Assembly (NCBI GenBank): GCA_021785405.1
Contig: JAJYFF010000005.1
Span: 23,738 to 87,737, forward strand
DNA from: Pseudomonadota bacterium
GTDB taxonomy: Bacteria > Pseudomonadota > Gammaproteobacteria > Steroidobacterales > Steroidobacteraceae
Length of the DNA: 64,000 bases
Direction of reading: 5' to 3'
Position numbers and translations under genes: made by a program. Below the pieces are notes generated by a model. The model was given only the letters and a program-made list of their open reading frames with translations, ran no database searches and was not told the DNA's origin. Positions 49,411-63,100 of the stretch are shown here, piece by piece; the first letter of the stretch is position 1; the number at the start of each line of letters is the position of its first letter.

Positions 49411-50664
49411 TCAGCGCGCCGCCGCGGGGCCGGGGCTGGCGCCAACGCGGGCGCCGGGGCAGGACGTGGCGCCGCCACTCGAGCGTCTGGTGAGAACCTG
49501 ATTGCGCTTGATCGACTGCTCCGGCGTCAACCACAGGCGGCCGCTCGCGGCGCAGCGCTCGCCGTAGTCGAACAGGCTGCGCATGAACTTCGGGCTGAAG
49601 TCGACGATGTTCACGACCGGGAAGTCCGCCGGAATGTCGGTCAGGCGAAAGCGCATGCCGAGGCTGCGCGTGAGATTGATCGTGCCGAGGATCGCCTCGC
49701 GGGTCTTGTAGGTCATGCTCGCGGAGAAGCTGCGCGTCAGCATCTCGAGGGTGCTCACCGGCGTGGTGCTCGGAATCCGCGCGATCTGGCTGTTCACGAT
49801 CATGTAGACCTCGCCGCCGCGCAGGGCCGGCAATTCCTGCGGCCGCAGCCCCGCGACCAAGGGCAGCGCGAACACCGGCGTCGTCACGCTGCCGTCGACG
49901 TGCATCTCCTCGTAGGCACGCCGGCCCTCGTGCACCCGGATCAAGACCGGCGGGAACACGCCCGGGACGCTGGCCGACGCGACCAGTACGTTGCGAAACA
50001 AGGCGCGCGCGGCTTCGCCGCCCTGCTCGGCGATCGCGCCCATGTCCCACAGAACCGTCTCCTCGCTGTCGAGATCGGTCGTCGCGATGATCAACCGGCG
50101 CCCCCGTTCGCTCGCGTGCGCGACCGCGGTGATCAGCGCCGGCGTCACGTAGTGATCCACCATGTCGAACAAGGCATCCCGGTGCCGTTGGCCGAGCGGG
50201 AACACCAGGCGACTCACGACGCGCCACCAGGCGGGGTGACTGAGCAGTCGGCGGTGATCGGCCGTGAACGCGGCCTCGAGCTCCGGGTCCCAGCGTGACC
50301 CGAGGAACGCGAACGGTGCGATCAGCGCACCCGCACTCACGCCGGTCACGAGTTCGAACCGCGGGCGGTCGTGGGCCTCGGTCATGCCGACGAGCGCGCC
50401 GGCGCCGAACGCGCCTTCCGACCCGCCCCCGGAGAGTGCGAGCACGTCGACCGGTCCGCCACCCGCCGCCCGGCGGATCCCGGCGAAGAATGGCGGCGCC
50501 CACCGGGCGAAGCCGCGCAGATCCGTGGTCACGAGGCGCACGGTCGGCGGAAAGCCCGGGGGTGCCGCCTCGTTGATCACCGTCGGTGGCGCCGGACGGC
50601 GCAGCGGTGTCGCGCAGCCGGCGAGCGCGCCGAGGCAGATCATGCTGAATACGCCGATTCGCAC
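49411..50664 (-). CDS. patatin-like phospholipase, lipoprotein
   Basis: Lipobox ...LGALAGC, oxyanion motif LSGGGSEGAFGAG, and nucleophile motif GVSAG. Confidence 0.8.
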   Translation of the reverse strand: MRIGVFSMICLGALAGCATPLRRPAPPTVINEAAPPGFPPTVRLVTTDLRGFARWAPPFFAGIRRAAGGGPVDVLALSGGGSEGAFGAGALVGMTEAHDRPRFELVTGVSAGALIAPFAFLGSRWDPELEAAFTADHRRLLSHPAWWRVVSRLVFPLGQRHRDALFDMVDHYVTPALITAVAHASERGRRLIIATTDLDSEETVLWDMGAIAEQGGEAARALFRNVLVASASVPGVFPPVLIRVHEGRRAYEEMHVDGSVTTPVFALPLVAGLRPQELPALRGGEVYMIVNSQIARIPSTTPVSTLEMLTRSFSASMTYKTREAILGTINLTRSLGMRFRLTDIPADFPVVNIVDFSPKFMRSLFDYGERCAASGRLWLTPEQSIKRNQVLTRRSSGGATSCPGARVGASPGPAAAR

Positions 50665-50835
50665 TGCGACCTCCGGACCCAGACGGCCGCACGCGGCGCG
50701 CCGGATCGTGGCGCGGACGCTGCGGGTGCGCAGAGCGTAGCCGGTTTCGTCGATCCGCTCACGCCGATTCGCCGGCCGCGCGGCTCGCCGGCTAGACTAT
50801 GCCGGTTCGGTCGGATTCGCTGACGGGAGATCGAG

Positions 50836-51222
50836 ATGGCGGGACTCGCGTGGATCGCGGTGGGCGCCGGCGCGGCGCTCGGAGCTTGGTTGCGCTGGGG
50901 CCTCGCGTCGCTGTTGAACACCGGCACGATCGCGGTGCCGCTCGGGACGCTCGCGGCGAATTGGATCGGTGCGTACGTGATCGGCGTCGCGCTCGCGTTC
51001 TTCGCGCAAGCGGCCGCGTTACCCGCCGAATGGCGCTTGTTCGTGATCACGGGTTTCTGCGGCGGTCTGACCACGTTCTCGACGTTCTCCGCCGAGAGCG
51101 TGTCGCTGCTGCAGCAGGGGCGATACGCGGCGCTCGCCGCCGAGATCGCCCTGCACGTCGGTGGCTCGTTGACCTTCACGGTGTTGGGGATGGCCTCGTG
51201 GCGCGCCTTCGCGGCGCGCTGA
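50836..51222 (+). CDS. crcB: fluoride channel CrcB/Fluc
   Basis: 128 aa, 4 TM, with ...[12 protein letters not shown]... as the CrcB signature. Confidence 0.88.
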
Positions 51223-51257
51223 GGCGGATCGGGCACGTCGACCGAGGAGTAGCCGCG

Positions 51258-51575
51258 ATGCGAGGATACCAAATCACCTTCTTCACCCAGCAGGACCGGC
51301 GCCACGACGGCAAGCCGCTTGGCGAGTGGTTGATGCAGCTCGCAAAGCGTCTCGAGTTGCAAGGGGCGACGATGATGCCGGCGGCCGAGGGCTTCGGCGC
51401 ATCCGGCCGCGTGCACTCGGTCCGTTTCTTCGAGCTCGGCGATCAGCCGATCGAGGTCCTGATGACCGTGACCGAGGCACAGGCGGATCGGCTCTTCGAG
51501 CATTTGCGGAGCGCCGGCGTCCATCTTTTCTACGTGAAGATCGCGGTCGAGTACGGAACCCTCGGCGCCGAATGA
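51258..51575 (+). CDS. DUF190-domain (P-II-like) protein commonly paired with crcB
   Basis: MRGYQITFFTQQDRRHDGKPLGEWLMQLAKRLELQGATMMPAAEGFG... ATG at 51258, preceded by GAGGAG. Confidence 0.8.
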   Translation: MRGYQITFFTQQDRRHDGKPLGEWLMQLAKRLELQGATMMPAAEGFGASGRVHSVRFFELGDQPIEVLMTVTEAQADRLFEHLRSAGVHLFYVKIAVEYGTLGAE

Positions 51576-51684
51576 CCGCGCCGGCCGCGGCGCGGCGCGC
51601 GGCCCGTTCGGGGCGCGATGCGCCGAACTCCGCGGGCCGCGCGCGATCGAACCGTTGAGAAAATCACGCGGGTCACTGCGAAAC

Positions 51685-54354
51685 ATGACGATGGCTTCAC
51701 GTCTCTCGTTCTTCCTGGCCGCCTCGATCGCCTGCGGCGCGGCCGCGCACGCGTCGCGGGCACGCTTCGACCTGGCCGGTCCCACGCTCGAGGCGACGGT
51801 GACGCACGATCACCAGACGCTCGGGATCGCGCAGGTGCCGAACCTCGCGGTCGGCGACCGGATCAAGATCAAGGCCGATCTGCCGCGCGATCAGTCCGTG
51901 CACTACCTGCTGATCGTCGCGTTCCTGAGCGGGTCGACGAACCCGCCGCCGCGGCGCTGGTTCACGGTCTGCGATACCTGGAAGCGCCGCTGCGCGCACC
52001 GCGGGATCGACGTCGCGGTGCCGCACGGGGCGCAACAGGTCCTGGTGTTCCTCGCGCCCCAGACCGGCGGCGACTTCAAGACGCTGGTCGGCGCGGTGCG
52101 CGGACGCCCCGGGGCGTTCGTGCGCACCGCGCAAGACCTGAACCAGGCGATGCTCGACCGCTCGCGCCTCGACGTGTACCTGGCCGCGGTACGCCGATTG
52201 AACGACGCCGATCCCAGCCAGTTGCGCAAGACCGCACCGTTGCTCGCGCGCAGTCTGGCGATCGTCGTCGATCCGAAGTGCCTGCAATTGATGCCGGATC
52301 TGCAGGCACCCTGCCTGCTGGCGCGGCGCGAGTCGATGATCCTCGAGGACGGGCACAGCACCTCGATCGTCGAGGCCTTGACGTCGGGGCCGGAGAGCGA
52401 CCTGGCGATGCAGGCGAGCTACACGCCGTCGCTGCGCTTCGGCTATTACAGCCCCTACGTCGCCTCGGTGCTCGACATCGCGCGCATCTTCGACTCCTTC
52501 CGCACGGCGCAGTACGACTACATCCCGGCCCTCGCGACGCTGCAGGGCGACCGGATGGAGCTGTCGCTGAACCGGCCACCGACGTTCACCGAGCCGAAGT
52601 CGGTGCTCGTCACCGCGCTGCCGGCGGTCGAGCCGGCGCAGCTCCCGCCCTTGCACGCGGTCGATCCGAAGGGAATCTACTGCGCCCGCAAGCACTCGCT
52701 CGTGCTGCCGGTCGAGGGCGCGCCGCTGGTCTTTTCGACCGCCTATGCGCGCGCGATGACCTTGCGGCTCGAAGGCCCGGGCGGCAAGCACATCGAGCTC
52801 CCGGCGCACGCCGACGCGGTGAAAGGGGGATTCGTGGTCGACACCGCCGCGATCGGCACGGCCGCGTCCGGCGGTCTCGGCGACCAGATCAAGGGCGTAC
52901 TGCACGGTCACTGGGGATTCAGCGCGTACGAGGGACCCTCGTTCCAGCTGATCAACGACCAGCGTTACGACTGGCGGCTCGCCGACGGCGAAGCGAACGC
53001 GCTGATCGTCGGCCGCGAGGATACGATCCACCTGCGGGCATCGAGCGTGAGCTGCATCGACACGGTGATGCTCCGCGATCCGGACGGCAAGGAATTGAAG
53101 GTCGACTGGAAGGCCAAGAAGCCGGACGAGGTCGAGCTCAAATTACCGCTGCAGAAGGCGAAGCCGGGCACGCTGACGCTGTTGGTCCGTGAATACGGTG
53201 CGAAGGCGCCGCGATCGGTGCCGCTGCAGGCGTTCGCGGCGGCCGGTCGGCTCGATGGCTTCACGTATCACGCGGGCGATGCGGTCGGGACCTTGCGCGG
53301 CAGCCGGCTCGACGAGGTCTCCGGACTGGAACTCGCGGGCGTGCGATTCGTGCCGCAGACGCTGTCGACGGGCCCGCACGGCGACGACTTGACGATGACG
53401 GTGACGAATGCGGGTGCCGCGGGCGCGGTGCAGCCCGAGCGCAAGGTCCTCGCGACGGTGCAGCTGAAGGACGGCCGCGCACTCACCGTGTCGAGCGCGG
53501 TGCTGGCTCCGCGGCCGCATGCGCTGCTGATCGCGCGGAGCGTGCACGCGTCGAAGGCGGATCGGGAGAGCCGGATCCGGCTGGACGGCGACGCGCAGGT
53601 CCCCCAGGACGCGCGGTTGGTGTTCTCGATCCGCGCGGTCGCGCCGGTCCGCTTCGATCGGCACACCACCGTCGACGTCGCGACCGTCGACGGCAGCGAG
53701 GCGACCACGCTGACGCTCGACAACGGGGGGCTGACGCTCGAGAACGCCCACGTCGCGATCGCGGAATTTCGCGCGTCGAAAGCCTTTGGCCGCGCGGCGT
53801 TCGGCCCCGTGCAGTTCCGGATCGCCGTCGACGGCGTCGCCGGCGCGTGGCAGCCGCTCGCGACCGTGGTGCGCTTGCCCACGTTGCGGGACCTGCAATG
53901 TCCCCGCACGCGCAAGATCGCCTGCAAACTGAGTGGATCGCGGTTGTTCTTGATCGACTCGATCGCGGCGGATCGCGAGTTCCGCGACGCCGTCACGGTG
54001 CCGGACGGATTTCCGGGCGAGGCCCTGCCGGTTCCGCACACGCGCGGTGGTTCGCTCTACGTGAAATTGCGCGATGACCCGAGCGCGGTCGACCGGCTCA
54101 CGCTGGTCGAGCAGCGCTTGCCCGCGCGACACCGCGCGATGAGCCACCCGGCCATCCCGCCGCAACCAGCCGCACCGCAGCCAGCTGCACCGCAGCCGGC
54201 CGCATCGACGCCGTCCGCGCCCGCACCGGCGGCGGCCGCGGCCTCCACGTCGGCGCCCGCCTCGGCGGCGCCCGCCTCGCCGGCGCCTGCCCCGGCGGCG
54301 ACTGGTGCCGCGGCACCCGCGTCCGCGGCCCTGCCCGTGTCGCACGGCCCGTGA
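51685..54354 (+). CDS. large secreted protein of unknown function with a C-terminal Pro/Ala/Ser/Thr-rich low-complexity tail
   Basis: Signal peptide MTMASRLSFFLAASIACGAAAHA|S, then ~800 aa of beta-rich sequence in which I recognise no motif. The last ~75 aa are ...PAIPPQPAAPQPAAPQPAASTPSAPAPAAAAASTSAPASAAPASPAPAPAATGAAAPASAALPVSHGP. Its TGA stop overlaps the GTG start of the next gene. Confidence 0.7.
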   Translation: MTMASRLSFFLAASIACGAAAHASRARFDLAGPTLEATVTHDHQTLGIAQVPNLAVGDRIKIKADLPRDQSVHYLLIVAFLSGSTNPPPRRWFTVCDTWKRRCAHRGIDVAVPHGAQQVLVFLAPQTGGDFKTLVGAVRGRPGAFVRTAQDLNQAMLDRSRLDVYLAAVRRLNDADPSQLRKTAPLLARSLAIVVDPKCLQLMPDLQAPCLLARRESMILEDGHSTSIVEALTSGPESDLAMQASYTPSLRFGYYSPYVASVLDIARIFDSFRTAQYDYIPALATLQGDRMELSLNRPPTFTEPKSVLVTALPAVEPAQLPPLHAVDPKGIYCARKHSLVLPVEGAPLVFSTAYARAMTLRLEGPGGKHIELPAHADAVKGGFVVDTAAIGTAASGGLGDQIKGVLHGHWGFSAYEGPSFQLINDQRYDWRLADGEANALIVGREDTIHLRASSVSCIDTVMLRDPDGKELKVDWKAKKPDEVELKLPLQKAKPGTLTLLVREYGAKAPRSVPLQAFAAAGRLDGFTYHAGDAVGTLRGSRLDEVSGLELAGVRFVPQTLSTGPHGDDLTMTVTNAGAAGAVQPERKVLATVQLKDGRALTVSSAVLAPRPHALLIARSVHASKADRESRIRLDGDAQVPQDARLVFSIRAVAPVRFDRHTTVDVATVDGSEATTLTLDNGGLTLENAHVAIAEFRASKAFGRAAFGPVQFRIAVDGVAGAWQPLATVVRLPTLRDLQCPRTRKIACKLSGSRLFLIDSIAADREFRDAVTVPDGFPGEALPVPHTRGGSLYVKLRDDPSAVDRLTLVEQRLPARHRAMSHPAIPPQPAAPQPAAPQPAASTPSAPAPAAAAASTSAPASAAPASPAPAPAATGAAAPASAALPVSHGP
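54160..54204 (+). repeat. in-frame 15-nt tandem repeat x3 encoding (PQPAA)3
   Basis: ccgcaaccagccgca / ccgcagccagctgca / ccgcagccggccgca, read directly and codon-aligned with the 51685 ORF. Confidence 0.8.
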
Positions 54355-55910
54355 GCCCCGCGCCGCAAAGCGTGACGCCGGAGTCCGAGCGCGGCGTGAT
54401 CACGACCGCGCTGGCGATCGGGCTCGTGCTCTACGTGACGGTGCTGCGCCTGATTTTTGGCGCGCACGTCGAGTTGATGCCCGAGGAGACCTATTACTGG
54501 AACTACTCGCGCCACCTCGCCATCGGCTATCTCGATCATCCGCCGATGGTCGCCTGGTTGATTCGCGCCGGTACCGCGATCCTCGGCCACACGGCGCTCG
54601 GCGTGCGGATCGGCGCGGTGCTCTGCGGGCTGGTCACGTCGGTGTTCGTTTACCGCTTGACCCGCAACCTCTACGGCCGCTCGAGCGCCGCACTCGCACT
54701 CGGGCTCGCGCAGGTGCTGCCCTTCTTCTTCCTGCAGGGCCTGTTGATGACCCCGGATACGCCGCTGACCGCGGCCTGGGCGGGGTCGCTGTATTTCCTG
54801 GAACGCGCGGCGGTCGGCGGGCACGCCCGCGCTTGGCTGTGGGCCGGGCTGTGCCTCGGGCTCGGGCTGCTCTCGAAGTACACGATCGGGCTGCTGGGGC
54901 TCGGCGCGCTCGTGTACCTCGTCGTCGACCCGCGGGCACGCCCGTGGCTGCGCCGATTCGAGCCGTACGCGGCGGCGGTGCTCGCGTTCGCGATCTTCTC
55001 GCCGGTGCTCGTCTGGAACGCCGAGCATCACTGGGCGTCGTTCGCGTTTCAGACGGCCCGTCGACTCGCCGGTCGTCCGCGATTCGCGTTGCCCGCACTG
55101 ATCGGCGCCGCGATCGTGTTGATCACCCCGACCGGCTTCGCCGCCGCGGTCCGGGCGGTCGCGTCGCGCCGGTTCGTCGCGTCCGGGGATGCCGATCGTC
55201 GTGCGGCACAGCGCTTCCTGCGCATCGCGCTGCTCGTGCCGATGGCGGTGTTCGTGCTGTTCAGTCTCCGGCGCCAGGTGAAGCTCGATTGGACCGGCGC
55301 GGCCTGGCTCGCGGCGCTGCCGCTGATCGCGCGCGAACTCGTCGAGGCCGGCGGCCGGAGCGCGTCCGTGGTGCGCCGCTGCTGGCGCGCCTCGATGCTA
55401 CCGACGATCGGCGTGCTCTGCATCGCGTACCCGGTGGGCCTGTACCACCTTGCGCGCGGGCTGCCCGGTCTGGGATACGATCGACACATCGAGCTGCTGC
55501 CCGTCGGTTGGCGGCAGCTCGGACGCCGCATCGACGCGGTGGTCGAACGCTATCGCCGCGAGCACGGCACCGAGCCGCTGGTGGTCGGGATGGATCGCTA
55601 CGTGATCGCGAGCGAACTCGCGTTCTACGGCTCGGCGCGGCCGGACCCGGTCGCCGACACGACGAGCGGCCACCTGTTCGGCGGCATGGGCTTGATGTAC
55701 GAGCGCTGGTTCCCGGTGGACCGGCAGCGCGACCGGACCTTGTTGTTGGTGTCCCTGGATCGGTCGAGCCTCGAGGCGGCGTCGGTCGCCGACTCCGCCG
55801 CTTCGCTCGGCCCGATCCGCGCAGGCTCGCTCACGCGGGATGGGCACTTCATCCGCGAGTACTACTACCGGTTCGCGTACGATTACCGCGGACCGCCCGC
55901 GGCGCACTAA
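54351..55910 (+). CDS. GT-C-fold glycosyltransferase, family 39/83-like (PMT_2 / ArnT-type), polyprenyl-phosphate-sugar dependent
   Basis: 519 aa with ~11 TM segments. The first periplasmic loop carries the acidic motif ...MPEETYYWNYSRHLAIGYLDHPPMVAW... There is a C-terminal soluble domain. The GTG at 54351 overlaps the upstream stop (GTGA). Confidence 0.8.
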   Translation: MSPAPQSVTPESERGVITTALAIGLVLYVTVLRLIFGAHVELMPEETYYWNYSRHLAIGYLDHPPMVAWLIRAGTAILGHTALGVRIGAVLCGLVTSVFVYRLTRNLYGRSSAALALGLAQVLPFFFLQGLLMTPDTPLTAAWAGSLYFLERAAVGGHARAWLWAGLCLGLGLLSKYTIGLLGLGALVYLVVDPRARPWLRRFEPYAAAVLAFAIFSPVLVWNAEHHWASFAFQTARRLAGRPRFALPALIGAAIVLITPTGFAAAVRAVASRRFVASGDADRRAAQRFLRIALLVPMAVFVLFSLRRQVKLDWTGAAWLAALPLIARELVEAGGRSASVVRRCWRASMLPTIGVLCIAYPVGLYHLARGLPGLGYDRHIELLPVGWRQLGRRIDAVVERYRREHGTEPLVVGMDRYVIASELAFYGSARPDPVADTTSGHLFGGMGLMYERWFPVDRQRDRTLLLVSLDRSSLEAASVADSAASLGPIRAGSLTRDGHFIREYYYRFAYDYRGPPAAH

Positions 55911-57055
55911 GTGCCCGATCGTCCCCAGGTGAAGAACTTCGTGACGGCGTAGTTCCACATCGAGCCGACCAGGATTCCGCCGAGCGCGCCGATGACCCAG
56001 GTCCCGTAGGCCTTGAAGATGAACGAAGCGACCGCGACGTTCATCACGCCGCCGACGCTGCAGGCGAGCACGAACAACAACCAACCCCGCAGCCATCGCC
56101 AGCCCCGCAGCCGCGCGTCACGGTAGGTCAGCAGGTTGTTCAGCGCGAAATTGAAGGTCATCGCGCACAGCGCGGCGATCGCCTGGGCCACCGCGAACCG
56201 CGCGTGCGCGATCTGCAGCAACGGCGTCAGTACCGCGAAATGCACCGCGATGCCGAACACGCCGACGATCGAAAACGCGACGAAACGGACCGGGACGACG
56301 TGCCCGACCATCTTGTCGAGCAACAACATCGCGTAGTCCCACGCGGTCACCGAATCCAGCTTGCTCTGTCCCGCGGTGCGCGGTCGGAACTCGTAAGGCA
56401 ACTCCTTGAATCGCAGCGGACCGGGGTGCGACGCGAACAAGTCGGCGAGCAGCTTGAATCCGATCGCGGACAAGCGCTCGCGGCTTCGTTCGAACACCCC
56501 GCGGTGCATCATGAAGAATCCGCTCATCGGGTCCTGGAGATCCTCGGGAACGAGGACCCGGCTGAGCCGCACGCCGACGCGGCTGAGGCGCGCGCGGCTG
56601 CGATCCCAGTCGCCGATCCCGCCGCCGGCCACATAGCGACTGCCGACGACGATTTCCGCGCTGCCGCCGCGCAAGGTCGCGAGCATCGACGGCAGCAAGC
56701 GCTCGTCGTGCTGCAGATCGGCGTCGATCACCGCGAGATACGGCGCGGCGCTCGCGAGCATCCCTTCGACGCACGCCGAGGACAGTCCCCGACGGCCGAA
56801 TCGCTGGATCACGCGGATCCGGCGATCCTCCAACGCGAGCGCACGGACGCGTTCGGCGGTTCCGTCCGGGGACGCGTCGTCGACGAAGATGACCTCCCAG
56901 TCGATGTCGCCCAGGACCGAGCGCAATCGACCGACCAGTGCGACGACGTTCTCGCACTCGTTGTAGGTCGGCACGACGACCGTGAGCTCCGCACCGCGCA
57001 GCCGCGGATCCGCGCTCGCGAGTTCGGTGTCGTCGACGGAAGACTCCCTGCGCAC
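55907..57055 (-). CDS. GT2 polyprenyl-phosphate glycosyltransferase (Ppm1/DPM1/ArnC/GtrB-like) fused to a C-terminal GtrA-like 4-TM domain
   Basis: ...LTVVVPTYNECENV...VIFVDDASPDGT...VIDADLQHD..., then the hydrophobic C-terminus ...FNFALNNLLTYRD...NYAVTKFFTWG. GTG start is the complement of 57053-57055, with a GAGGAG RBS overlapping the betC stop. Confidence 0.8.
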   Translation of the reverse strand: MRRESSVDDTELASADPRLRGAELTVVVPTYNECENVVALVGRLRSVLGDIDWEVIFVDDASPDGTAERVRALALEDRRIRVIQRFGRRGLSSACVEGMLASAAPYLAVIDADLQHDERLLPSMLATLRGGSAEIVVGSRYVAGGGIGDWDRSRARLSRVGVRLSRVLVPEDLQDPMSGFFMMHRGVFERSRERLSAIGFKLLADLFASHPGPLRFKELPYEFRPRTAGQSKLDSVTAWDYAMLLLDKMVGHVVPVRFVAFSIVGVFGIAVHFAVLTPLLQIAHARFAVAQAIAALCAMTFNFALNNLLTYRDARLRGWRWLRGWLLFVLACSVGGVMNVAVASFIFKAYGTWVIGALGGILVGSMWNYAVTKFFTWGRSGT

Positions 57056-57066
57056 CGACCGGCTCC

Positions 57067-58596
57067 TCAGCTGCCGACCCTCGGGAACCGGGCCATCGCT
57101 TCCAGATCGTTCAATTCCTGGTCGTTGCGGATGTAGAGTTTCGCGGCGTCGCGCAGCGGCTGATGATCCCAGGGCTGGTACTGACCCTTGCGCAGTGCGG
57201 CGTCGACCAGATGGCGGCGCCGTTGGCTCGCGAGGACCTCCGCGTGCAATTCCGGGAAATTCCACCGCTCCGCGAGTTCGGCGCGGAACGCGCGTACGGC
57301 CGCGGCGTGCGCCGGCTCCGTCGCGAGATTCCGCAGCTCCAGCGGGTCGGCGCCGAGGTCGTACAGTTGGTCGGGGTCGACCGGGGAATGGACGAATTTC
57401 CAGTGACCGCGTCGTATCATCACGAGCGGCGCGATCGCTCCTTCGCCGAGAAACTCGCCGATCACCTCGTCGGGACCCGCACCGGCGCCGGACAGTGCCG
57501 GTAGCAGGCTGCGCCCGCACAGCGGCGTCGCATAGCGCTCGCTCGCGACGCCACCGAGCTCGCACAGCGTCGGCAGGAGGTCGACCAGCGACGCCGACTG
57601 CGCAATGCGCCGTGGCGCGAAGCGGCGTGGCGCGTGCACGATCAGCGGAATGCGGCACGCCGGCTCGAAGAAGCTCATCTTGTACCACAGGCCCCGCTCA
57701 CCGAGCATGTCGCCGTGATCCGCGATCACCAGGACCACCGTGTTGTCGGCGAGGCGCGCGGCCGCGAGGCCGTCGAGCAGCTTGCCGACCTGGTCGTCGA
57801 CGTAGGACACGGCGCCGTAGTACGCGCGCCGCGCCGCGCGAACCTGTTCCTCGGTCACGCTCTGCAGGTCGAGGCCGATCACGTGACGCACGCGGCGAGA
57901 GTGCGGATCGAGCAGCTCCGGCGCGGCGCGCACGCGGGGCATGTCGATCTCGACGCCGTCGTAGCGGTTCCAGTAAGCCTCCGGCACCACGTACGGGTCG
58001 TGCGGGTGGGTCATCGAGACGACCATGCAGAACGGCCGGCGATCCTTGGATCGGGCGATGTCGAAGAGCTTTTGCCGCGCGTTGAACACGACCTCGTCGT
58101 CGAAGTCGATTTGGTTGGTGCGCACGCAGGGACCGGCCTGCGTGACCGAATCCATCGTGTGGTACCAACTCAGGCGCTCGGAGAACCGCGTCCAGTCCGG
58201 GGTCCAGCCGAAATCGGCCGGGTAGATGTCGGTCGTGAGCCGCTCCTCGAAGCCGTGCAGCTGGTCCGGCCCGCAGAAGTGCATCTTCCCGGACAGCACC
58301 GTTTGATATCCCGCATCCCGCAGGTAGTGCGCGAACGTCGGCACCGAGGCCGGCAACTCGGCGGCGTTGTCGAAGGCGCCGATCTTCGACGGCAGCCGTC
58401 CCGCCATCCACGAGAACCGCGACGGTGCGCACAAGGGGCTGTTGCAGTAGAAGGAGTCGAACACGACTCCGCCCGCGGCGAGCGCGTCGATTCGGGGCGT
58501 GCGGCTCGTCGGATTGCCGTAGGCGCGCAGCGCCCCGGCGGTCAATTGATCCGCCATCAGAATCAAGAGGTTCGGTCGCGCGTTCAAAGGCGTCAC
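57067..58596 (-). CDS. betC: choline-sulfatase
   Basis: ...RPNLLILMADQL...SPLCAPSR (formylglycine motif)...LSGKMHFCGPDQLHGFEERLTTDIYPADFGWTPDW...YQPWDHQPL... is nearly collinear with S. meliloti BetC as I recall it. The start (GTG 58596 or the TTG 9 nt downstream) is uncertain. Confidence 0.85.
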   Translation of the reverse strand: MTPLNARPNLLILMADQLTAGALRAYGNPTSRTPRIDALAAGGVVFDSFYCNSPLCAPSRFSWMAGRLPSKIGAFDNAAELPASVPTFAHYLRDAGYQTVLSGKMHFCGPDQLHGFEERLTTDIYPADFGWTPDWTRFSERLSWYHTMDSVTQAGPCVRTNQIDFDDEVVFNARQKLFDIARSKDRRPFCMVVSMTHPHDPYVVPEAYWNRYDGVEIDMPRVRAAPELLDPHSRRVRHVIGLDLQSVTEEQVRAARRAYYGAVSYVDDQVGKLLDGLAAARLADNTVVLVIADHGDMLGERGLWYKMSFFEPACRIPLIVHAPRRFAPRRIAQSASLVDLLPTLCELGGVASERYATPLCGRSLLPALSGAGAGPDEVIGEFLGEGAIAPLVMIRRGHWKFVHSPVDPDQLYDLGADPLELRNLATEPAHAAAVRAFRAELAERWNFPELHAEVLASQRRRHLVDAALRKGQYQPWDHQPLRDAAKLYIRNDQELNDLEAMARFPRVGS

Positions 58597-58808
58597 TCCA
58601 CAGCGGGGGTCGGGGGCGCTCGCGGGCGGGCGACCCGCGATAGGTCTTAACCGCTTATGATTACATGCCCTTACCGCCGTAGCCAACGCCGTCGATTCCC
58701 TCCGCCTTGTCGGAATGCGACAATAGGCCGGCGCGACGGCCTTCCGCGGGCAGGGGCTGTCGCATCTGGATCCGAGACCGTCGCGATGAGTTAAGTGTCT
58801 CCTGCGGG

Positions 58809-58824
58809 GGGCACTTAGTATGCG
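58809..58824 (+). promoter_or_regulatory. candidate sigma-54 (-24/-12) promoter upstream of the corrinoid cluster
   Basis: GGGCAC-ttagt-ATGCG compared with the consensus TGGCAC-N5-TTGCW. The spacing is correct, and it lies about 65 nt upstream of the ATG at 58891. Confidence 0.3.
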
Positions 58825-58890
58825 ATGCTCGTGTCCGGAGCGCGGAACGAGCGCGAGAGACCCGTGGATCAATGACAGCTGGAGACCGCG

Positions 58891-59601
<711 letters not shown>

Positions 59602-59617
59602 GCGCACGGAGGGATCG

Positions 59618-60268
59618 ATGGTGGTCGACGGGCAGGGCACGCTGATCATCGCCTGCGGTGCGCTCGCGCACGAGGTGGCGGCGCTGCGCGCGGCGAACGG
59701 CTGGAGCGCGCTCGACGTGCGGTGTCTACCGCCGGAACTGCACAATCGGCCCGAACGCATCCCGGCAGCGGTTCGCGACTTGATTCGCGAATCCCGGCCG
59801 CAGTACCGGTCGATTTTCGTCGCGTACGGCGATTGCGGGACCGGCGGACGGCTCGACGAGGTATTGGCGGCCGAGGGGGTCGAGCGGATCCCGGGCGCGC
59901 ATTGCTACGAGTTCTACGCGACCGGGCCCGCGTTCGCCGCGCTCGCCGACGACGAGCCGGGTTCGTTCTACCTCACCGATTTCCTGCTGCGGCACTTCGA
60001 GCGCCTGGTGATCCGCGGTCTCGGCCTCGACCGTCACCCGGAGCTGTTCCCGACCTATTTCGGCAATTACCGGCGCCTCGTCTATCTCGCGCAGCGGCCG
60101 AGCGAGACCGCCGAGCGGGAGGCGCGCGTGATCGCCGAACGGATGGGGCTTGCGTTCGAGTACCGGCTCACGGGTTACGGGACGCTCGCGACGAGCCTCG
60201 CCGCGACCGTCGAACGCGGACAGGATACGGCGGGCCGCGAGCACCGGGTGGATGCATGGGCGAACTGA
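59618..60268 (+). CDS. DUF1638-domain protein
   Basis: MVVDGQGTLIIACGALAHEV...FVAYGDCGTGG...FYLTDFLLRHFE... is the pattern I associate with DUF1638, which co-occurs with corrinoid methyltransferase genes. RBS GGAGGG. Confidence 0.75.
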   Translation: MVVDGQGTLIIACGALAHEVAALRAANGWSALDVRCLPPELHNRPERIPAAVRDLIRESRPQYRSIFVAYGDCGTGGRLDEVLAAEGVERIPGAHCYEFYATGPAFAALADDEPGSFYLTDFLLRHFERLVIRGLGLDRHPELFPTYFGNYRRLVYLAQRPSETAEREARVIAERMGLAFEYRLTGYGTLATSLAATVERGQDTAGREHRVDAWAN

Positions 60269-60603
60269 CGATCATTTCCTGGCGCGACATCCCGGCACAG
60301 GTGATCGTGAAGCGCGGTCGCCTGTCGGCGAAAGTGCAGCTGTCGCAGCGCTTCCAGGAAGCGGTCGACCGCGCCGCGATGCGCGCCGGGAAGGGCAGTT
60401 CCGACGCGTATCTCGCGGATTGGAAGCGCAGCGCTCCGCGGCCGTGCAGTGACGACCTGCAGGCCGAAGCCGCCGCCGAGGCGGCGTCGATCGAGGCGCG
60501 CTACAGCGACGAAGACCTCGAGCGGCTGATCCGCGCGAAGGGCCTGGCCTCCCCGCCGCCGCCCCCCGCAGGGTCGACCGAGCCCGGCACCGGAGCGTCC
60601 TGA
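60256..60603 (+). CDS. small conserved protein of unknown function (resembles proteins annotated 'virulence factor' family in equivalent clusters)
   Basis: MGELTIISWRDIPAQVIVKRGRLSAKVQLSQRFQEAVDRAAMRAGKGSSDAYLADWKR... It overlaps the upstream gene by 13 nt, and its stop overlaps the next ATG (TGATG). Confidence 0.55.
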   Translation: MGELTIISWRDIPAQVIVKRGRLSAKVQLSQRFQEAVDRAAMRAGKGSSDAYLADWKRSAPRPCSDDLQAEAAAEAASIEARYSDEDLERLIRAKGLASPPPPPAGSTEPGTGAS

Positions 60604-61103
60604 TGTATTCGGTACGGCAATGGTCCGTGCGACACGCGCGCGGGCTCAACGCGTTCTATCGCGGATTCGAGGCGGTGCTCCTGCGCTGCCACCGGTTGTT
60701 CGAACGGATCGGCTACGAACGCCTCGAGCGCCCGGTCGCGTTCGTCGAGCGGAACGTCAAGGGACTCCTGTTCGACTGCCAGATGTGCGGTCAGTGCGCG
60801 TTGAGCTCGACGGGGATGTCGTGCCCGATGAATTGTCCGAAGACCTTGCGCAACGGACCTTGCGGCGGCGTGCGCGCGAACGGCCACTGCGAGGTCAAGC
60901 CGGAAATGAAATGCGTCTGGGTGGAGGCGTTCCGCGGTAGTCGGCGCATCGAGGGCGGGATCGACGCGATGAGCGAGGTCCAGTTCGCGGTCGATCAGCG
61001 GCTCAAGGGCCGGTCGTCGTGGTTGCGCGTCGTGCGGGAGAAGACCGAGAAGCCCCCAGCGGCCGCGAAAGCGGCGGCATCGGCGGGAGGGGCGGGTCGG
61101 TGA
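60603..61103 (+). CDS. methylenetetrahydrofolate reductase C-terminal-domain (MetV-like) Cys-rich protein
   Basis: ...LLFDCQMCGQCALSSTGMSCPMNCPKTLRNGPCGGV...CEV...CVW... has the Cys spacing I associate with MetV-type subunits. Confidence 0.8.
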   Translation: MYSVRQWSVRHARGLNAFYRGFEAVLLRCHRLFERIGYERLERPVAFVERNVKGLLFDCQMCGQCALSSTGMSCPMNCPKTLRNGPCGGVRANGHCEVKPEMKCVWVEAFRGSRRIEGGIDAMSEVQFAVDQRLKGRSSWLRVVREKTEKPPAAAKAAASAGGAGR

Positions 61104-62125
61104 AGTTCGACGACGAGCCGGCGCCTGGGCAGCCGCTGCCGATCCTGCCGGGCCACAGTTCGCCCGGGAGACTCGAGCGGGTATTGCGAGCGGGTTCGTT
61201 CGCGGTCACGACCGAGCTGGCGCCGCCGGATTCGGCCGATCCGGAGGAAGTCTACGCGCGCGCGCGCGTGTTCGACGGCTACGCCGACGCGATCAACGCG
61301 ACCGACGGCAGCGGCGCGAACTGTCACATGTCGAGCGTCGCGGTCTGCGCGCTCCTGACGCGCATCGGTTACGCGCCGGTGATGCAGATTTCGTGTCGCG
61401 ACAAGAACCGGATCGCGATCCAGGGGGACATCCTCGGCGGCGCGGCGATGGGCGTGTGCAACATGCTCTGCCTGACCGGGGATGGCGTGCAGGCGGGAGA
61501 CCATCCGCAAGCGAAGCCCGTATTCGATCTCGATTGCGTGTCCTTGCTCACGATCGCCCGCACCTTGCGGGACGAGAGTCACTTTCAGAGCGGCCGCAAG
61601 ATCACGTCCCCGCCCCACGTGTTCCTCGGAGCGGCCGAGAACCCGTCGGCGCTGCCGCACGACTGGCGCGCACGCCGCCTCGCGAAGAAGGTCGCCGCCG
61701 GGGCGCAATTCATCCAGACGCAGTATTGCTACGACCTGGCGCTGCTGCGGACCTTCATGCGCCACGTCGAGGATCTCGGTCTCATCGGCAAGGTCTTCAT
61801 CCTCGCGGGCGTCGGTCCGTTGCGCTCGGCCAAGACTGCGGACTGGATGCGCCGGAACGTCCCTGGCATGCACATTCCCGACGCGCTGATCGATCGGCTC
61901 GCCGGCGCGAAGGACCCCGCGCGCGAGGGCCGCGACCTGTGCGTCGAGCAGATCCAGGCGATCCGCGAGATCCCCGGCATCAGCGGCGTGCACGTGATGG
62001 CCTATCGACAGGAAGAGACCGTCGCCGAGATCATCGACCGGTCCGGCGTGCTCGCCGGCCGCGTGCCGTGGTTTCCGGGGCGCGAACAGGATCCGCGCGA
62101 TCCGCGTTCGCCCGGCGCCGCTTGA
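61100..62125 (+). CDS. methylenetetrahydrofolate reductase (MetF-like)
   Basis: ...FAVTTELAPPDSADP...INATDGSGANCHMSS...QISCRDKNR...FLGAAENP...AGAQFIQTQYCYD... GTG at 61100 overlaps the upstream stop (GTGA). Confidence 0.85.
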   Translation: MKFDDEPAPGQPLPILPGHSSPGRLERVLRAGSFAVTTELAPPDSADPEEVYARARVFDGYADAINATDGSGANCHMSSVAVCALLTRIGYAPVMQISCRDKNRIAIQGDILGGAAMGVCNMLCLTGDGVQAGDHPQAKPVFDLDCVSLLTIARTLRDESHFQSGRKITSPPHVFLGAAENPSALPHDWRARRLAKKVAAGAQFIQTQYCYDLALLRTFMRHVEDLGLIGKVFILAGVGPLRSAKTADWMRRNVPGMHIPDALIDRLAGAKDPAREGRDLCVEQIQAIREIPGISGVHVMAYRQEETVAEIIDRSGVLAGRVPWFPGREQDPRDPRSPGAA

Positions 62126-62179
62126 GATTTCCGGACACGGTGCGTCCGTGACCTTACGACTCCCCCACAGGATGACCCC

Positions 62180-63100
62180 ATGACAGATACCGTAGTGAGT
62201 TCCGCGACCAAGGAAGTGGTGATCGGTTTCGACCGGCCGTTCGTGATCATCGGCGAGCGCATCAACCCGACGGGCCGCAAGATTCTGGCCGCGGAGATGG
62301 CCGCCGGCGATTTCAGTCGCGTCGAGGCCGACGCGCGCGCCCAGGTCGAGGCCGGCGCGCACATGCTCGACGTCAATGCCGGGATCCCGCTCGCGGACGA
62401 ACCGGCGATCCTCGCGAAGGCGGTCCAGCTCGTGCAGTCGATCACCGACGTCCCGTTGTCGATCGACTCCTCGATCGTCGCGGCGTTGGAAGCGGGTTTG
62501 AAGGTCTACAAGGGCAAGGCGCTCGTGAATTCCGTGACCGGCGAAGAAGAGCGGCTCGAGGCGGTATTGCCCCTCGTGAAGAAATACGGGGCCGCGGTGA
62601 TCGCGATCTCGAACGACGAGACGGGGATCTCCGAGGATCCGGACGTGCGCTACGCGGTCGCGAAGAAGATCGTCGAGCGCGCGATCGATCACGGGATACC
62701 CGCGAGCGACGTCGTCGTCGATCCGCTGGTGATGCCGATCGGCGCGATCAATTCCGCAGGGGTGCAGGTACTGCGGCTGGTGCATCGCTTGCGCACCGAG
62801 CTCAAGGTCAACACGTCCTGCGGCGCCTCGAACGTCAGCTTCGGCCTGCCGAACCGCGACGGCATCAACAGCGCGTTCCTCACGATGGCGATCGGCGCCG
62901 GGATGACCTCGGCGATCGCGAATCCGTTGCATGCGGACGTCGTGCGCGCGTGCCTGGGCGCCGACGTGATGATGGGCCACGATCCGGACTGCGCGCGCTG
63001 GATCCGCAAGTACCGCGAAGTGCCGCCGCCGGGCGCGGCGGGCGAGGGTGCGGCTCGCGGACGGCGCGAAGGCGGCCTGCGGCGGCGGCCGTCGGCCTGA
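62180..63100 (+). CDS. methyltetrahydrofolate:corrinoid methyltransferase (pterin-binding domain, AcsE/MetH-domain/MtrH-like)
   Basis: ...FVIIGERINPTGRK...MLDVNAG...PLSIDSS...ALVNSVTGE...NTSCGASNVSFGLP... Confidence 0.85.
   Translation: MTDTVVSSATKEVVIGFDRPFVIIGERINPTGRKILAAEMAAGDFSRVEADARAQVEAGAHMLDVNAGIPLADEPAILAKAVQLVQSITDVPLSIDSSIVAALEAGLKVYKGKALVNSVTGEEERLEAVLPLVKKYGAAVIAISNDETGISEDPDVRYAVAKKIVERAIDHGIPASDVVVDPLVMPIGAINSAGVQVLRLVHRLRTELKVNTSCGASNVSFGLPNRDGINSAFLTMAIGAGMTSAIANPLHADVVRACLGADVMMGHDPDCARWIRKYREVPPPGAAGEGAARGRREGGLRRRPSA

Follow-up and report, generated by a model that had tools for sequence, protein, structure and literature searches.

A probable carrier-lipid glycosylation pair beside a member of a large secreted protein family in a Steroidobacteraceae genome

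The DNA analysed here is a stretch of 64,000 nucleotides (the window) from a gammaproteobacterium of the Steroidobacteraceae (contig JAJYFF010000005.1, positions 23,738 to 87,737), with a G+C content of about 70%. Within it lie three adjacent genes, encoding a secreted protein of 889 residues (here called X), a membrane glycosyltransferase of the GT-C type, and a GT2 enzyme fused to a GtrA-like membrane domain. A first-pass annotation had proposed that X and the GT-C enzyme form a dedicated protein-glycosylation pair, with modification of lipid A or lipopolysaccharide (LPS) as the main alternative. Our analysis favours a different reading: the GT2 and GT-C enzymes probably form a carrier-lipid glycosylation pair, and X is an independent protein that adjoins them through a gene order specific to one clade. 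The features on which the argument turns are as follows.

51685..54354, plus strand: protein X, secreted, 889 residues; a translated open reading frame (ORF), belonging to a widely conserved uncharacterised family
51685..51753, plus strand: predicted Sec signal peptide of X, residues 1–23, cleaved between AHA and S; read from the sequence and from the N-terminus of the family consensus
54121..54351, plus strand: Pro/Ala/Ser/Thr-rich low-complexity C-terminal tail of X, residues 813–889; from composition and a predicted local distance difference test (pLDDT) score below 50
54351..55910, plus strand: GT-C glycosyltransferase, 519 residues, PMT_2 family, ArnT-like fold; from Pfam, the AlphaFold2 model and Foldseek
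55907..57055, minus strand: putative polyprenyl-phosphate hexose synthase, 382 residues, consisting of GT2 and a four-helix domain of the GtrA/dolichol-phosphate mannose synthase (DPMS) type; from Pfam and the match to 5mlz
56486..56983, minus strand: GT2 catalytic domain, residues 25–190; from Pfam and the motifs VVVPTYNE, DDASPDGT and DADLQHD
55925..56275, minus strand: GtrA/DPMS transmembrane domain, residues 261–377; PF04138 at 1.9e-19, aligning to the membrane domain of 5mlz

The GT2 protein matches Pfam Glycos_transf_2 (PF00535, 2.4e-31) and GtrA_DPMS_TM (PF04138, 70.4 bits), and it aligns over its full length with the DPMS of Pyrococcus furiosus, PDB 5mlz (residues 16–378 against 17–373, 2.8e-51, 177.9 bits). 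The alignment spans the four membrane helices that Pfam assigns to GtrA_DPMS_TM, and the DXD motif DADLQHD aligns with DADLQHP of 5mlz, the first six residues being identical. A single chain carries the GT-A catalytic domain, the interface helices and the four-helix membrane domain, as in the Pyrococcus-type (type III) synthase. By comparison, GtrB (sll0501) and ArnC give only 35–41 bits (35 for ArnC). In sequence terms the protein would appear to be a DPMS-type polyprenyl-phosphate hexose synthase, and because it is far more similar to DPMS than to GtrB or ArnC, its donor sugar is most likely mannose. The archaeal 5mlz acts on dolichol phosphate, whereas the carrier here would presumably be undecaprenyl phosphate. 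The motifs quoted in the first-pass annotation are all present. The description of the fused domain as a GtrA-like putative flippase holds as far as the family is concerned, but the domain is equivalent to the four-helix membrane domain native to DPMS, and the flippase role is putative.

The first-pass annotation gave the GT-C enzyme about 11 membrane segments and an acidic loop motif; about 11 long helices are predicted, and the motif is present. Its best Pfam match is PMT_2 (1.2e-46, 159.3 bits), and 38 homologues show no variation at E45 and E46 (PEETYYW) or at D62, H63, P64 and P65 (LDHPP), residues of the first periplasmic loop. It also exceeds the threshold of Pfam PMT (PF02366; 1.6e-08, 34.9 bits against a cut-off of 22.7), although this lies far below the PMT_2 score. 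Among the NCBIfam models the best match is the ArnT equivalog (NF009784), at 33.9 bits against a cut-off of 567, while the Pmt equivalog (PrMnsylTfPmt) reaches 20.8 bits against a cut-off of 800. A search of PDB sequences, using both the single sequence and a profile, gave no significant match, the solved Pmt structures included.

The structural comparison is more informative. The AlphaFold2 model of the GT-C enzyme has a predicted template modelling score (pTM) of 0.80 and a pLDDT of 75.7, and all of its top 23 Foldseek matches (E ≤ 0.001) are GT-C enzymes. The best is ArnT of Cupriavidus metallidurans (5ezm; E 3.8e-09, template modelling (TM) score 0.57), and the two ArnT entries 5ezm and 5f15 together match over the whole protein with E of about 4e-09 and TM of 0.53–0.57. 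Next, with E values of 6e-06 or weaker, come oligosaccharyltransferases and ALG enzymes. Pmt4 and Pmt1–Pmt2 give E values of 2e-04 to 1e-02 and TM of 0.29–0.44, mostly over about 250 aligned columns. The acidic motif had been taken as typical of both protein O-mannosyltransferases and ArnT relatives; between these two, the fold comes out on the side of ArnT. The enzyme resembles ArnT also in size, and in having a small C-terminal periplasmic domain.

This resemblance raises the question of whether the pair is a true ArnC/ArnT system, adding 4-amino-4-deoxy-L-arabinose (Ara4N) to lipid A, given that ArnT is the best match of the GT-C enzyme in both structure and NCBIfam. We considered this and rejected it as extremely unlikely. 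The GT-C enzyme is only 17% identical to ArnT, its equivalog score is far below the cut-off, and the Arnt_C domain (PF18583) was not detected in it by the Pfam search. Its partner is DPMS-like and not ArnC-like (178 against 35 bits), and there are no ArnA, ArnB or ArnD-like genes among the main ORFs of the window. In a related genome (L086, 1726–3393) there is moreover a second GT-C paralogue, beside a resistance–nodulation–division (RND) pump and 4.6 kb from the GT-C orthologue, that contains both PMT_2 and Arnt_C, and in these genomes it is this paralogue that probably represents the true ArnT-type gene.

The genes for the two enzymes are convergent in the window, and their stop codons (TAA at 55908–55910 for GT-C; TAG at 55907–55909, on the minus strand, for GT2) overlap by 4 nt, as the first-pass annotation had reported. 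This convergent pair is found in five genome loci and in the metagenome locus L088. In 10 further metagenome loci the same two genes occur as a divergent, head-to-head pair, with the GT2-GtrA protein 61–68% identical to that of the window. Because the same pair recurs in two different arrangements, these data indicate that GT-C and GT2 are functionally linked, and the link is more convincing than that to X. It is not a universal one: an adjacent GT2 gene is present in only 7 of 46 fully flanked GT-C loci, and many GT-C orthologues are without one. The earlier view of the two enzymes as a polyprenyl-phosphate-sugar synthase and a GT-C transferase, following the logic of carrier-lipid glycosylation in the periplasm, is borne out by their domains and by this second arrangement.

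To examine the GT-C side, 83 GT-C loci (L085–L167) were used, of which 50 have at least 3 kb upstream. Most of the orthologues are around 630 residues long, with an N-terminal GtrA domain (PF04138) that is absent from the window clade. It is striking that in this clade X ends exactly where the usual GtrA domain of the GT-C enzyme would begin. An OmpR-type response regulator and a histidine kinase lie directly upstream of the GT-C orthologue in 20 of the 83 loci. Other neighbours are an AcrB-type pump (14/83), an SbmA/BacA-like ABC transporter (20/83) and a GH3 glycosidase (25/83). Examples from the loci of these GtrA-PMT_2 fusions are found at L152 7475–8155, L143 765–2207 and L106 6691–8586. 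In the arn, ept and pmr loci, a context of regulators, pumps and transporters is typical of regulated envelope remodelling, and arn and ept genes often lie behind two-component systems. By analogy, the neighbours of the GT-C orthologues would suggest a context of the same envelope-remodelling type, and in standing often behind a two-component system these orthologues resemble ArnC/ArnT.

Two small proteins are also found close to the GT-C gene. A secreted Adhesin_E protein (PF16747) of about 199 residues is encoded roughly 31 nt downstream on the same strand in 23 loci (for example L096, 9015–9614), and in 17 loci a membrane protein of 205 residues, with no Pfam match, is encoded about 9 nt downstream, mostly on the same strand. 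Both are candidate partners of the GT-C enzyme.

In actinobacteria, Ppm1 and the GT39 enzyme Pmt glycosylate Ser and Thr residues in Pro/Ala-rich regions of exported proteins. The window pair has in common with this system a synthase of the polyprenyl-phosphate-mannose type and a GT-C enzyme with an acidic motif in loop 1. The GT-C enzyme could be envisaged as O-mannosylating exported proteins in general, as a Gram-negative counterpart of Ppm1/Pmt that would work in the periplasm regardless of gene position and have X as one of many substrates with Pro/Ala/Ser/Thr-rich segments. In its favour are the Pfam PMT match and the DPMS-type donor synthase, the wide occurrence of both the X and GT-C families in metagenome-assembled genomes (MAGs) of Steroidobacteraceae, the conservation of low-complexity tails as a feature of X, and the small Adhesin_E-like protein downstream of GT-C. 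Set against these are the PMT_2 score of 159 bits as opposed to 35 for PMT, the failure of sequence and profile searches alike to match any solved Pmt, the fold ranking that places ArnT well above the Pmt structures, the equivalog score, and the fact that no protein substrate is consistently linked to the gene. The orthologues, with their two-component, RND and BacA-type neighbours, stand in a setting that resembles remodelling of envelope lipids. A literature search gave no case of PMT_2-type protein O-mannosylation in proteobacteria, and we know of none. This explanation is therefore unlikely.

On the basis of these observations, we hypothesise that, on the cytoplasmic side of the membrane, the GT2 enzyme charges polyprenyl phosphate with a hexose, for which mannose, supplied by GDP-mannose, is the most likely candidate. 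The polyprenyl-linked sugar would then be flipped to the periplasmic face, possibly aided by the GtrA-type helices, and the ArnT-like GT-C enzyme would transfer the sugar to an acceptor in the envelope. Domain identities, fold and recurrent gene linkage are observed for this pair; the sugar, the acceptor and the flipping step are what we infer. The acceptor would most likely be a glycolipid or glycan and not X specifically; lipid A or the LPS core comes first among the candidates, a polysaccharide or periplasmic glucan second, and a protein acceptor is a minority possibility.

Lipid A or LPS core is placed first because of the analogy with Francisella, in which a DPMS-like enzyme (FlmF1) and a GT-C enzyme (FlmK) are required for the presence of mannose on lipid A, and where FlmF1 of F. 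novicida has been proposed to make the undecaprenyl-phosphate-mannose donor (PMC2233673). The similarity is one of two-enzyme logic, a DPMS-like synthase with an ArnT-like enzyme, and is drawn from description and not from sequence. The arrangement differs: the Francisella genes for FlmF1 and FlmK are not neighbours, and those of the window overlap convergently. Modification of lipid A or LPS, which the first-pass annotation had kept as its alternative, thus fits the evidence better than does the idea of X as substrate.

The presence of a GtrA-family module, a GT2 synthase and an acidic-loop GT-C enzyme would, from the sequences, place the pair within the known kind of carrier-lipid or ‘three-component’ glycosylation. 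Passages of PMC11127046 and PMC8035078 describe such systems (the GtrA/GtrB/GtrC type, and CsbB/GtcA/YfhO) as consisting of a synthase, a GtrA-family module and a GT-C enzyme acting outside the cytoplasm. The GtrA module is here fused to the synthase, and in most orthologues to the GT-C enzyme. The window differs from these systems in that its GT-C is PMT_2/ArnT-like and not GtrC or YfhO, and in having no O-antigen or teichoic-acid genes nearby.

We now turn to the relationship with X. The stop codon of X (TGA, 54352–54354) overlaps a GTG at 54351; no start codon precedes this one in the GT-C frame, and a public gene call (P0121) uses it as the GT-C start. The GTGA overlap reported in the first-pass annotation is therefore real, and translational coupling of X and GT-C across these 4 nt is plausible from the sequence. 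It is not certain, because in-frame GTG codons at 54372 and 54396 provide alternative GT-C starts, and the claim that the enzyme starts at the overlap is to be qualified to this extent. This junction is the origin of the proposal that X is a dedicated substrate, with its tail O-glycosylated in the periplasm by the coupled GT-C enzyme, using polyprenyl-phosphate-hexose made by the GT2-GtrA protein.

In order to see how far the linkage extends, 80 genome loci at species level, each with as much as 10 kb of sequence flanking X in either direction, were searched by tblastn (E ≤ 1e-3). GT-C followed by the GT2-GtrA gene is found downstream of X solely in L005, L007, L008, L009 and L010, in all of which X is 65–89% identical to X of the window. 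In these five loci the whole block of about 20 kb is syntenic, containing HrpB helicase, GGT, a POT transporter, X, GT-C, GT2, sulfatase, B12-binding protein and DUF1638. They represent 5 of the 74 loci that have at least 2.5 kb downstream of X. If only the 47 loci flanked by at least 5 kb in both directions are counted, one or other of the enzymes is matched in 6, the sixth being L020, where a GT-C gene lies 8.6 kb upstream. Viewed from the other direction, X lies upstream of GT-C in 1 of the 50 informative GT-C loci, and that one (L089) belongs to the same syntenic clade. On three long contigs with GT-C orthologues of about 58% identity, neither X nor the GT2 gene is present within 8 kb. No gene family neighbours X in more than 18 of the 80 loci; those found most often are molybdenum-cofactor genes, an aminotransferase and trehalose-6-phosphate synthase, which are of housekeeping type, reflect synteny within sub-clades and give no hint of function.

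The clear conclusion is that the X–GT-C junction is the inherited gene order of one narrow lineage, and not a recurrent association. The first-pass annotation had held that its proposal would fall if orthologues of the enzyme pair never co-occurred with the large protein; what was found comes close to this, in that X and the enzymes hardly ever occur side by side outside the single syntenic clade.

The tail of X had been the second reason for regarding it as a substrate. As described in the first-pass annotation, X is a secreted protein, with a predicted signal sequence and a low-complexity tail, here measured as 889 residues and about 77 residues respectively. The tail is 27% Pro, 39% Ala and 16% Ser+Thr and is disordered in the AlphaFold2 model. 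A tail of at least 12 residues is however present in all 106 homologues of less than 64% identity (median 74.5 residues, range 12–203), compared with 13 of the 14 homologues of at least 64% identity. The median Ser+Thr fractions are 0.18 and 0.16 respectively. In the examined genome loci with X below 64% identity, no GT-C gene is nearby except in L020. By contrast, the homologue P0006, which matches L007 (it has the same MAG name), where GT-C is tightly linked, has a tail of only 21 residues, with 67% Pro and 5% Ser+Thr. Because the tails are family-wide, and because the tail of the GT-C-linked P0006 is short and poor in Ser and Thr, the Pro/Ala-rich tail is an intrinsic feature of the X family and gives no specific support to an enzyme–substrate relationship.

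It is true that the junction is an overlap or a gap of no more than 12 nt in the five related genomes as well as an overlap in the window, that the tail contains Ser and Thr, that the GT-C enzyme passes the PMT threshold, and that its partner is DPMS-like. There is also a precedent in proteobacteria. In Pseudomonas aeruginosa, tfpW is encoded beside pilA. A passage of a preprint (bioRxiv 10.1101/2020.04.19.049825) presents TfpW as a GT-C enzyme that modifies pilin. Even so, the restriction of the adjacency to one block-syntenic clade, the equally present and equally Ser/Thr-rich tails in the rest of the family, the tail of P0006, and a GT-C fold and equivalog score that are not those of Pmt make it very unlikely that X is a dedicated substrate, and we do not uphold that part of the earlier proposal.

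X itself belongs to a large family, and the earlier description of it as an orphan was mistaken. A search of a collection of 5.8 billion proteins gave more than 5,400 homologues at E ≤ 1e-3, of which about 120 share 55–100% identity across some 90% of the length. With each species represented by one genome, 423 loci were located, and an exhaustive profile search gave 1,536 clusters at 50% identity. Nearly all of the homologues are unnamed or ‘hypothetical’ and come from MAGs of Steroidobacteraceae or Gammaproteobacteria. X has no match in Pfam or NCBIfam, even at E ≤ 10, and ten distant members are likewise without a Pfam match. Against PDB, neither the single sequence nor a profile gave anything significant, the sole match being FlgD at E 0.3.

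The N-terminus of X is signal-like when read from the sequence (MTMASRLSFFLAASIACGAAAHA, with cleavage before S), and the family consensus retains a hydrophobic N-terminus ending in AAHA. One database entry names the protein as a lipoprotein; this was rejected, as the family consensus does not retain the Cys of the signal region. An alignment of 32 sequences has a mean column identity of 62% and eight invariant cysteines, and the N-terminal half contains long invariant motifs, for example DGHSTSIV, DGHSTSIVEALTSGP and GYYSPY.

The AlphaFold2 model of X is mediocre (pLDDT 67, pTM 0.41). It consists of an N-terminal β-sandwich (residues ~30–125), a poorly predicted helical region (~130–270; window 52072–52494), five or six Ig-like β-sandwiches (~277–806) and the disordered tail. 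Foldseek gives only generic matches to tandem Ig proteins, with TM of 0.1–0.2 (contactin, plexin, complement, adhesins), from which no function can be assigned. Residues 149–265 have the lowest confidence outside the tail (pLDDT 25–50) and lie within the strongly conserved N-terminal half. On the model, this helical stretch may form a new domain, one that folds only with a partner or ligand. X can thus be described as an exported protein that is conserved and rich in disulfides, that contains several Ig-like domains and whose family is uncharacterised, and it appears as a stand-alone member of a large group of secreted proteins in Steroidobacteraceae-like Gammaproteobacteria.

Paralogues of X exist. 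Two copies of the family are found on different contigs both in MFD02248.bin.2.119 (L044 and L082) and in MGr3G3H3I bin 42 (L023 and L049). In one MAG (L001, 13064–17433) a SIR2/TIR protein and a STAND-type NTPase (AAA_16, nSTAND1) are encoded 2.5 kb downstream of the X homologue, and from their domains would resemble a defence-system pair.

Several points weigh against the view that the enzymes act as a pair on an envelope glycan, with X as an independent neighbour. X and GT-C are probably co-transcribed within the syntenic clade, where they overlap or lie within 12 nt of each other, a closeness that might have a functional reason. The two protein families also occur widely within one bacterial family, which leaves room for an enzyme–substrate relation in trans. 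The GT-C enzyme scores above the Pfam PMT threshold and has a partner resembling a mannose synthase, as is found in protein O-mannosylation. The acceptor is deduced, by analogy, from fold and orthologue context only, and the orthologues linked to two-component systems are only 52–60% identical to the window gene and might be functional paralogues of it. There are no lipid A, LPS or Ara4N genes among the main ORFs of the window.

Taken together, it appears quite unlikely to us that the substrates of the GT-C enzyme include X or other exported proteins. The possibility should still be set out. It has two variants: the general periplasmic O-mannosyltransferase considered above, and an enzyme recruited to the X tail. 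In the latter case, a rearrangement in the narrow clade to which the window belongs could have deprived the GT-C enzyme of its N-terminal GtrA domain and joined its start directly to the end of X; the enzyme, either newly recruited or with an activity that it already had now exposed, would then O-glycosylate the tail. The reading that we prefer remains that of a carrier-lipid glycosylation pair with X as an unconnected neighbour.

On the other side of the GT2 gene lies a further gene:

57067..58596, minus strand: choline-sulfatase-like gene, directly upstream of the GT2 gene; Sulfatase and Choline_sulf_C domains

The GT2 start codon (GTG, 57055) is 11 nt past the stop of this gene on the same strand, with GGAG 7 nt before the GTG. 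Because of the short gap, the shared strand and the GGAG, the two genes are most likely transcribed together, judging from their layout, although no functional link between them is evident. The same sulfatase-like/GT2 arrangement recurs in L002. A scan of 50600–59000 for promoters and terminators gave nothing above shuffle expectation. The candidate starts of the sulfatase-like gene are 58596 and 58587. The mechanical ORF of 897 residues (57067–59760, minus strand) is over-extended: the sulfatase domain begins at residue 396, and the part upstream of this overlaps the B12-binding gene on the opposite strand.

In the window (57067–63100) the choline-sulfatase-like gene is divergent from a cluster encoding a B12-binding protein, DUF1638, DUF5981/MTHFR-C and a pterin-binding enzyme. 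An equivalent block is found in L002 (13383–18637), with Virulence_fact and MTHFR in addition. The B12-binding protein is 88–96% identical across loci in which X is only about 60–70% identical. From its domains the block looks like a corrinoid/tetrahydrofolate methyl-transfer system, possibly one that demethylates a quaternary amine.

More generally, unless two genes stay linked in different lineages, a start/stop overlap of 4 nt seen in a single genome is a poor guide to whether they function together. An enzyme–substrate module here, if true, would be a new type of protein glycosylation in proteobacteria, and under the recruitment variant a gammaproteobacterium would for the first time have a PMT_2/ArnT-like system of protein O-glycosylation together with a gene for its cognate substrate; the comparison of genomes speaks against such a module. 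The X family is large and well conserved and is matched by no Pfam model, and it merits an entry as a domain of unknown function. The enzyme pair would add one more case in which a DPMS-type synthase goes with an ArnT-like GT-C enzyme, here in the Steroidobacteraceae, an abundant and poorly studied lineage of soil bacteria.

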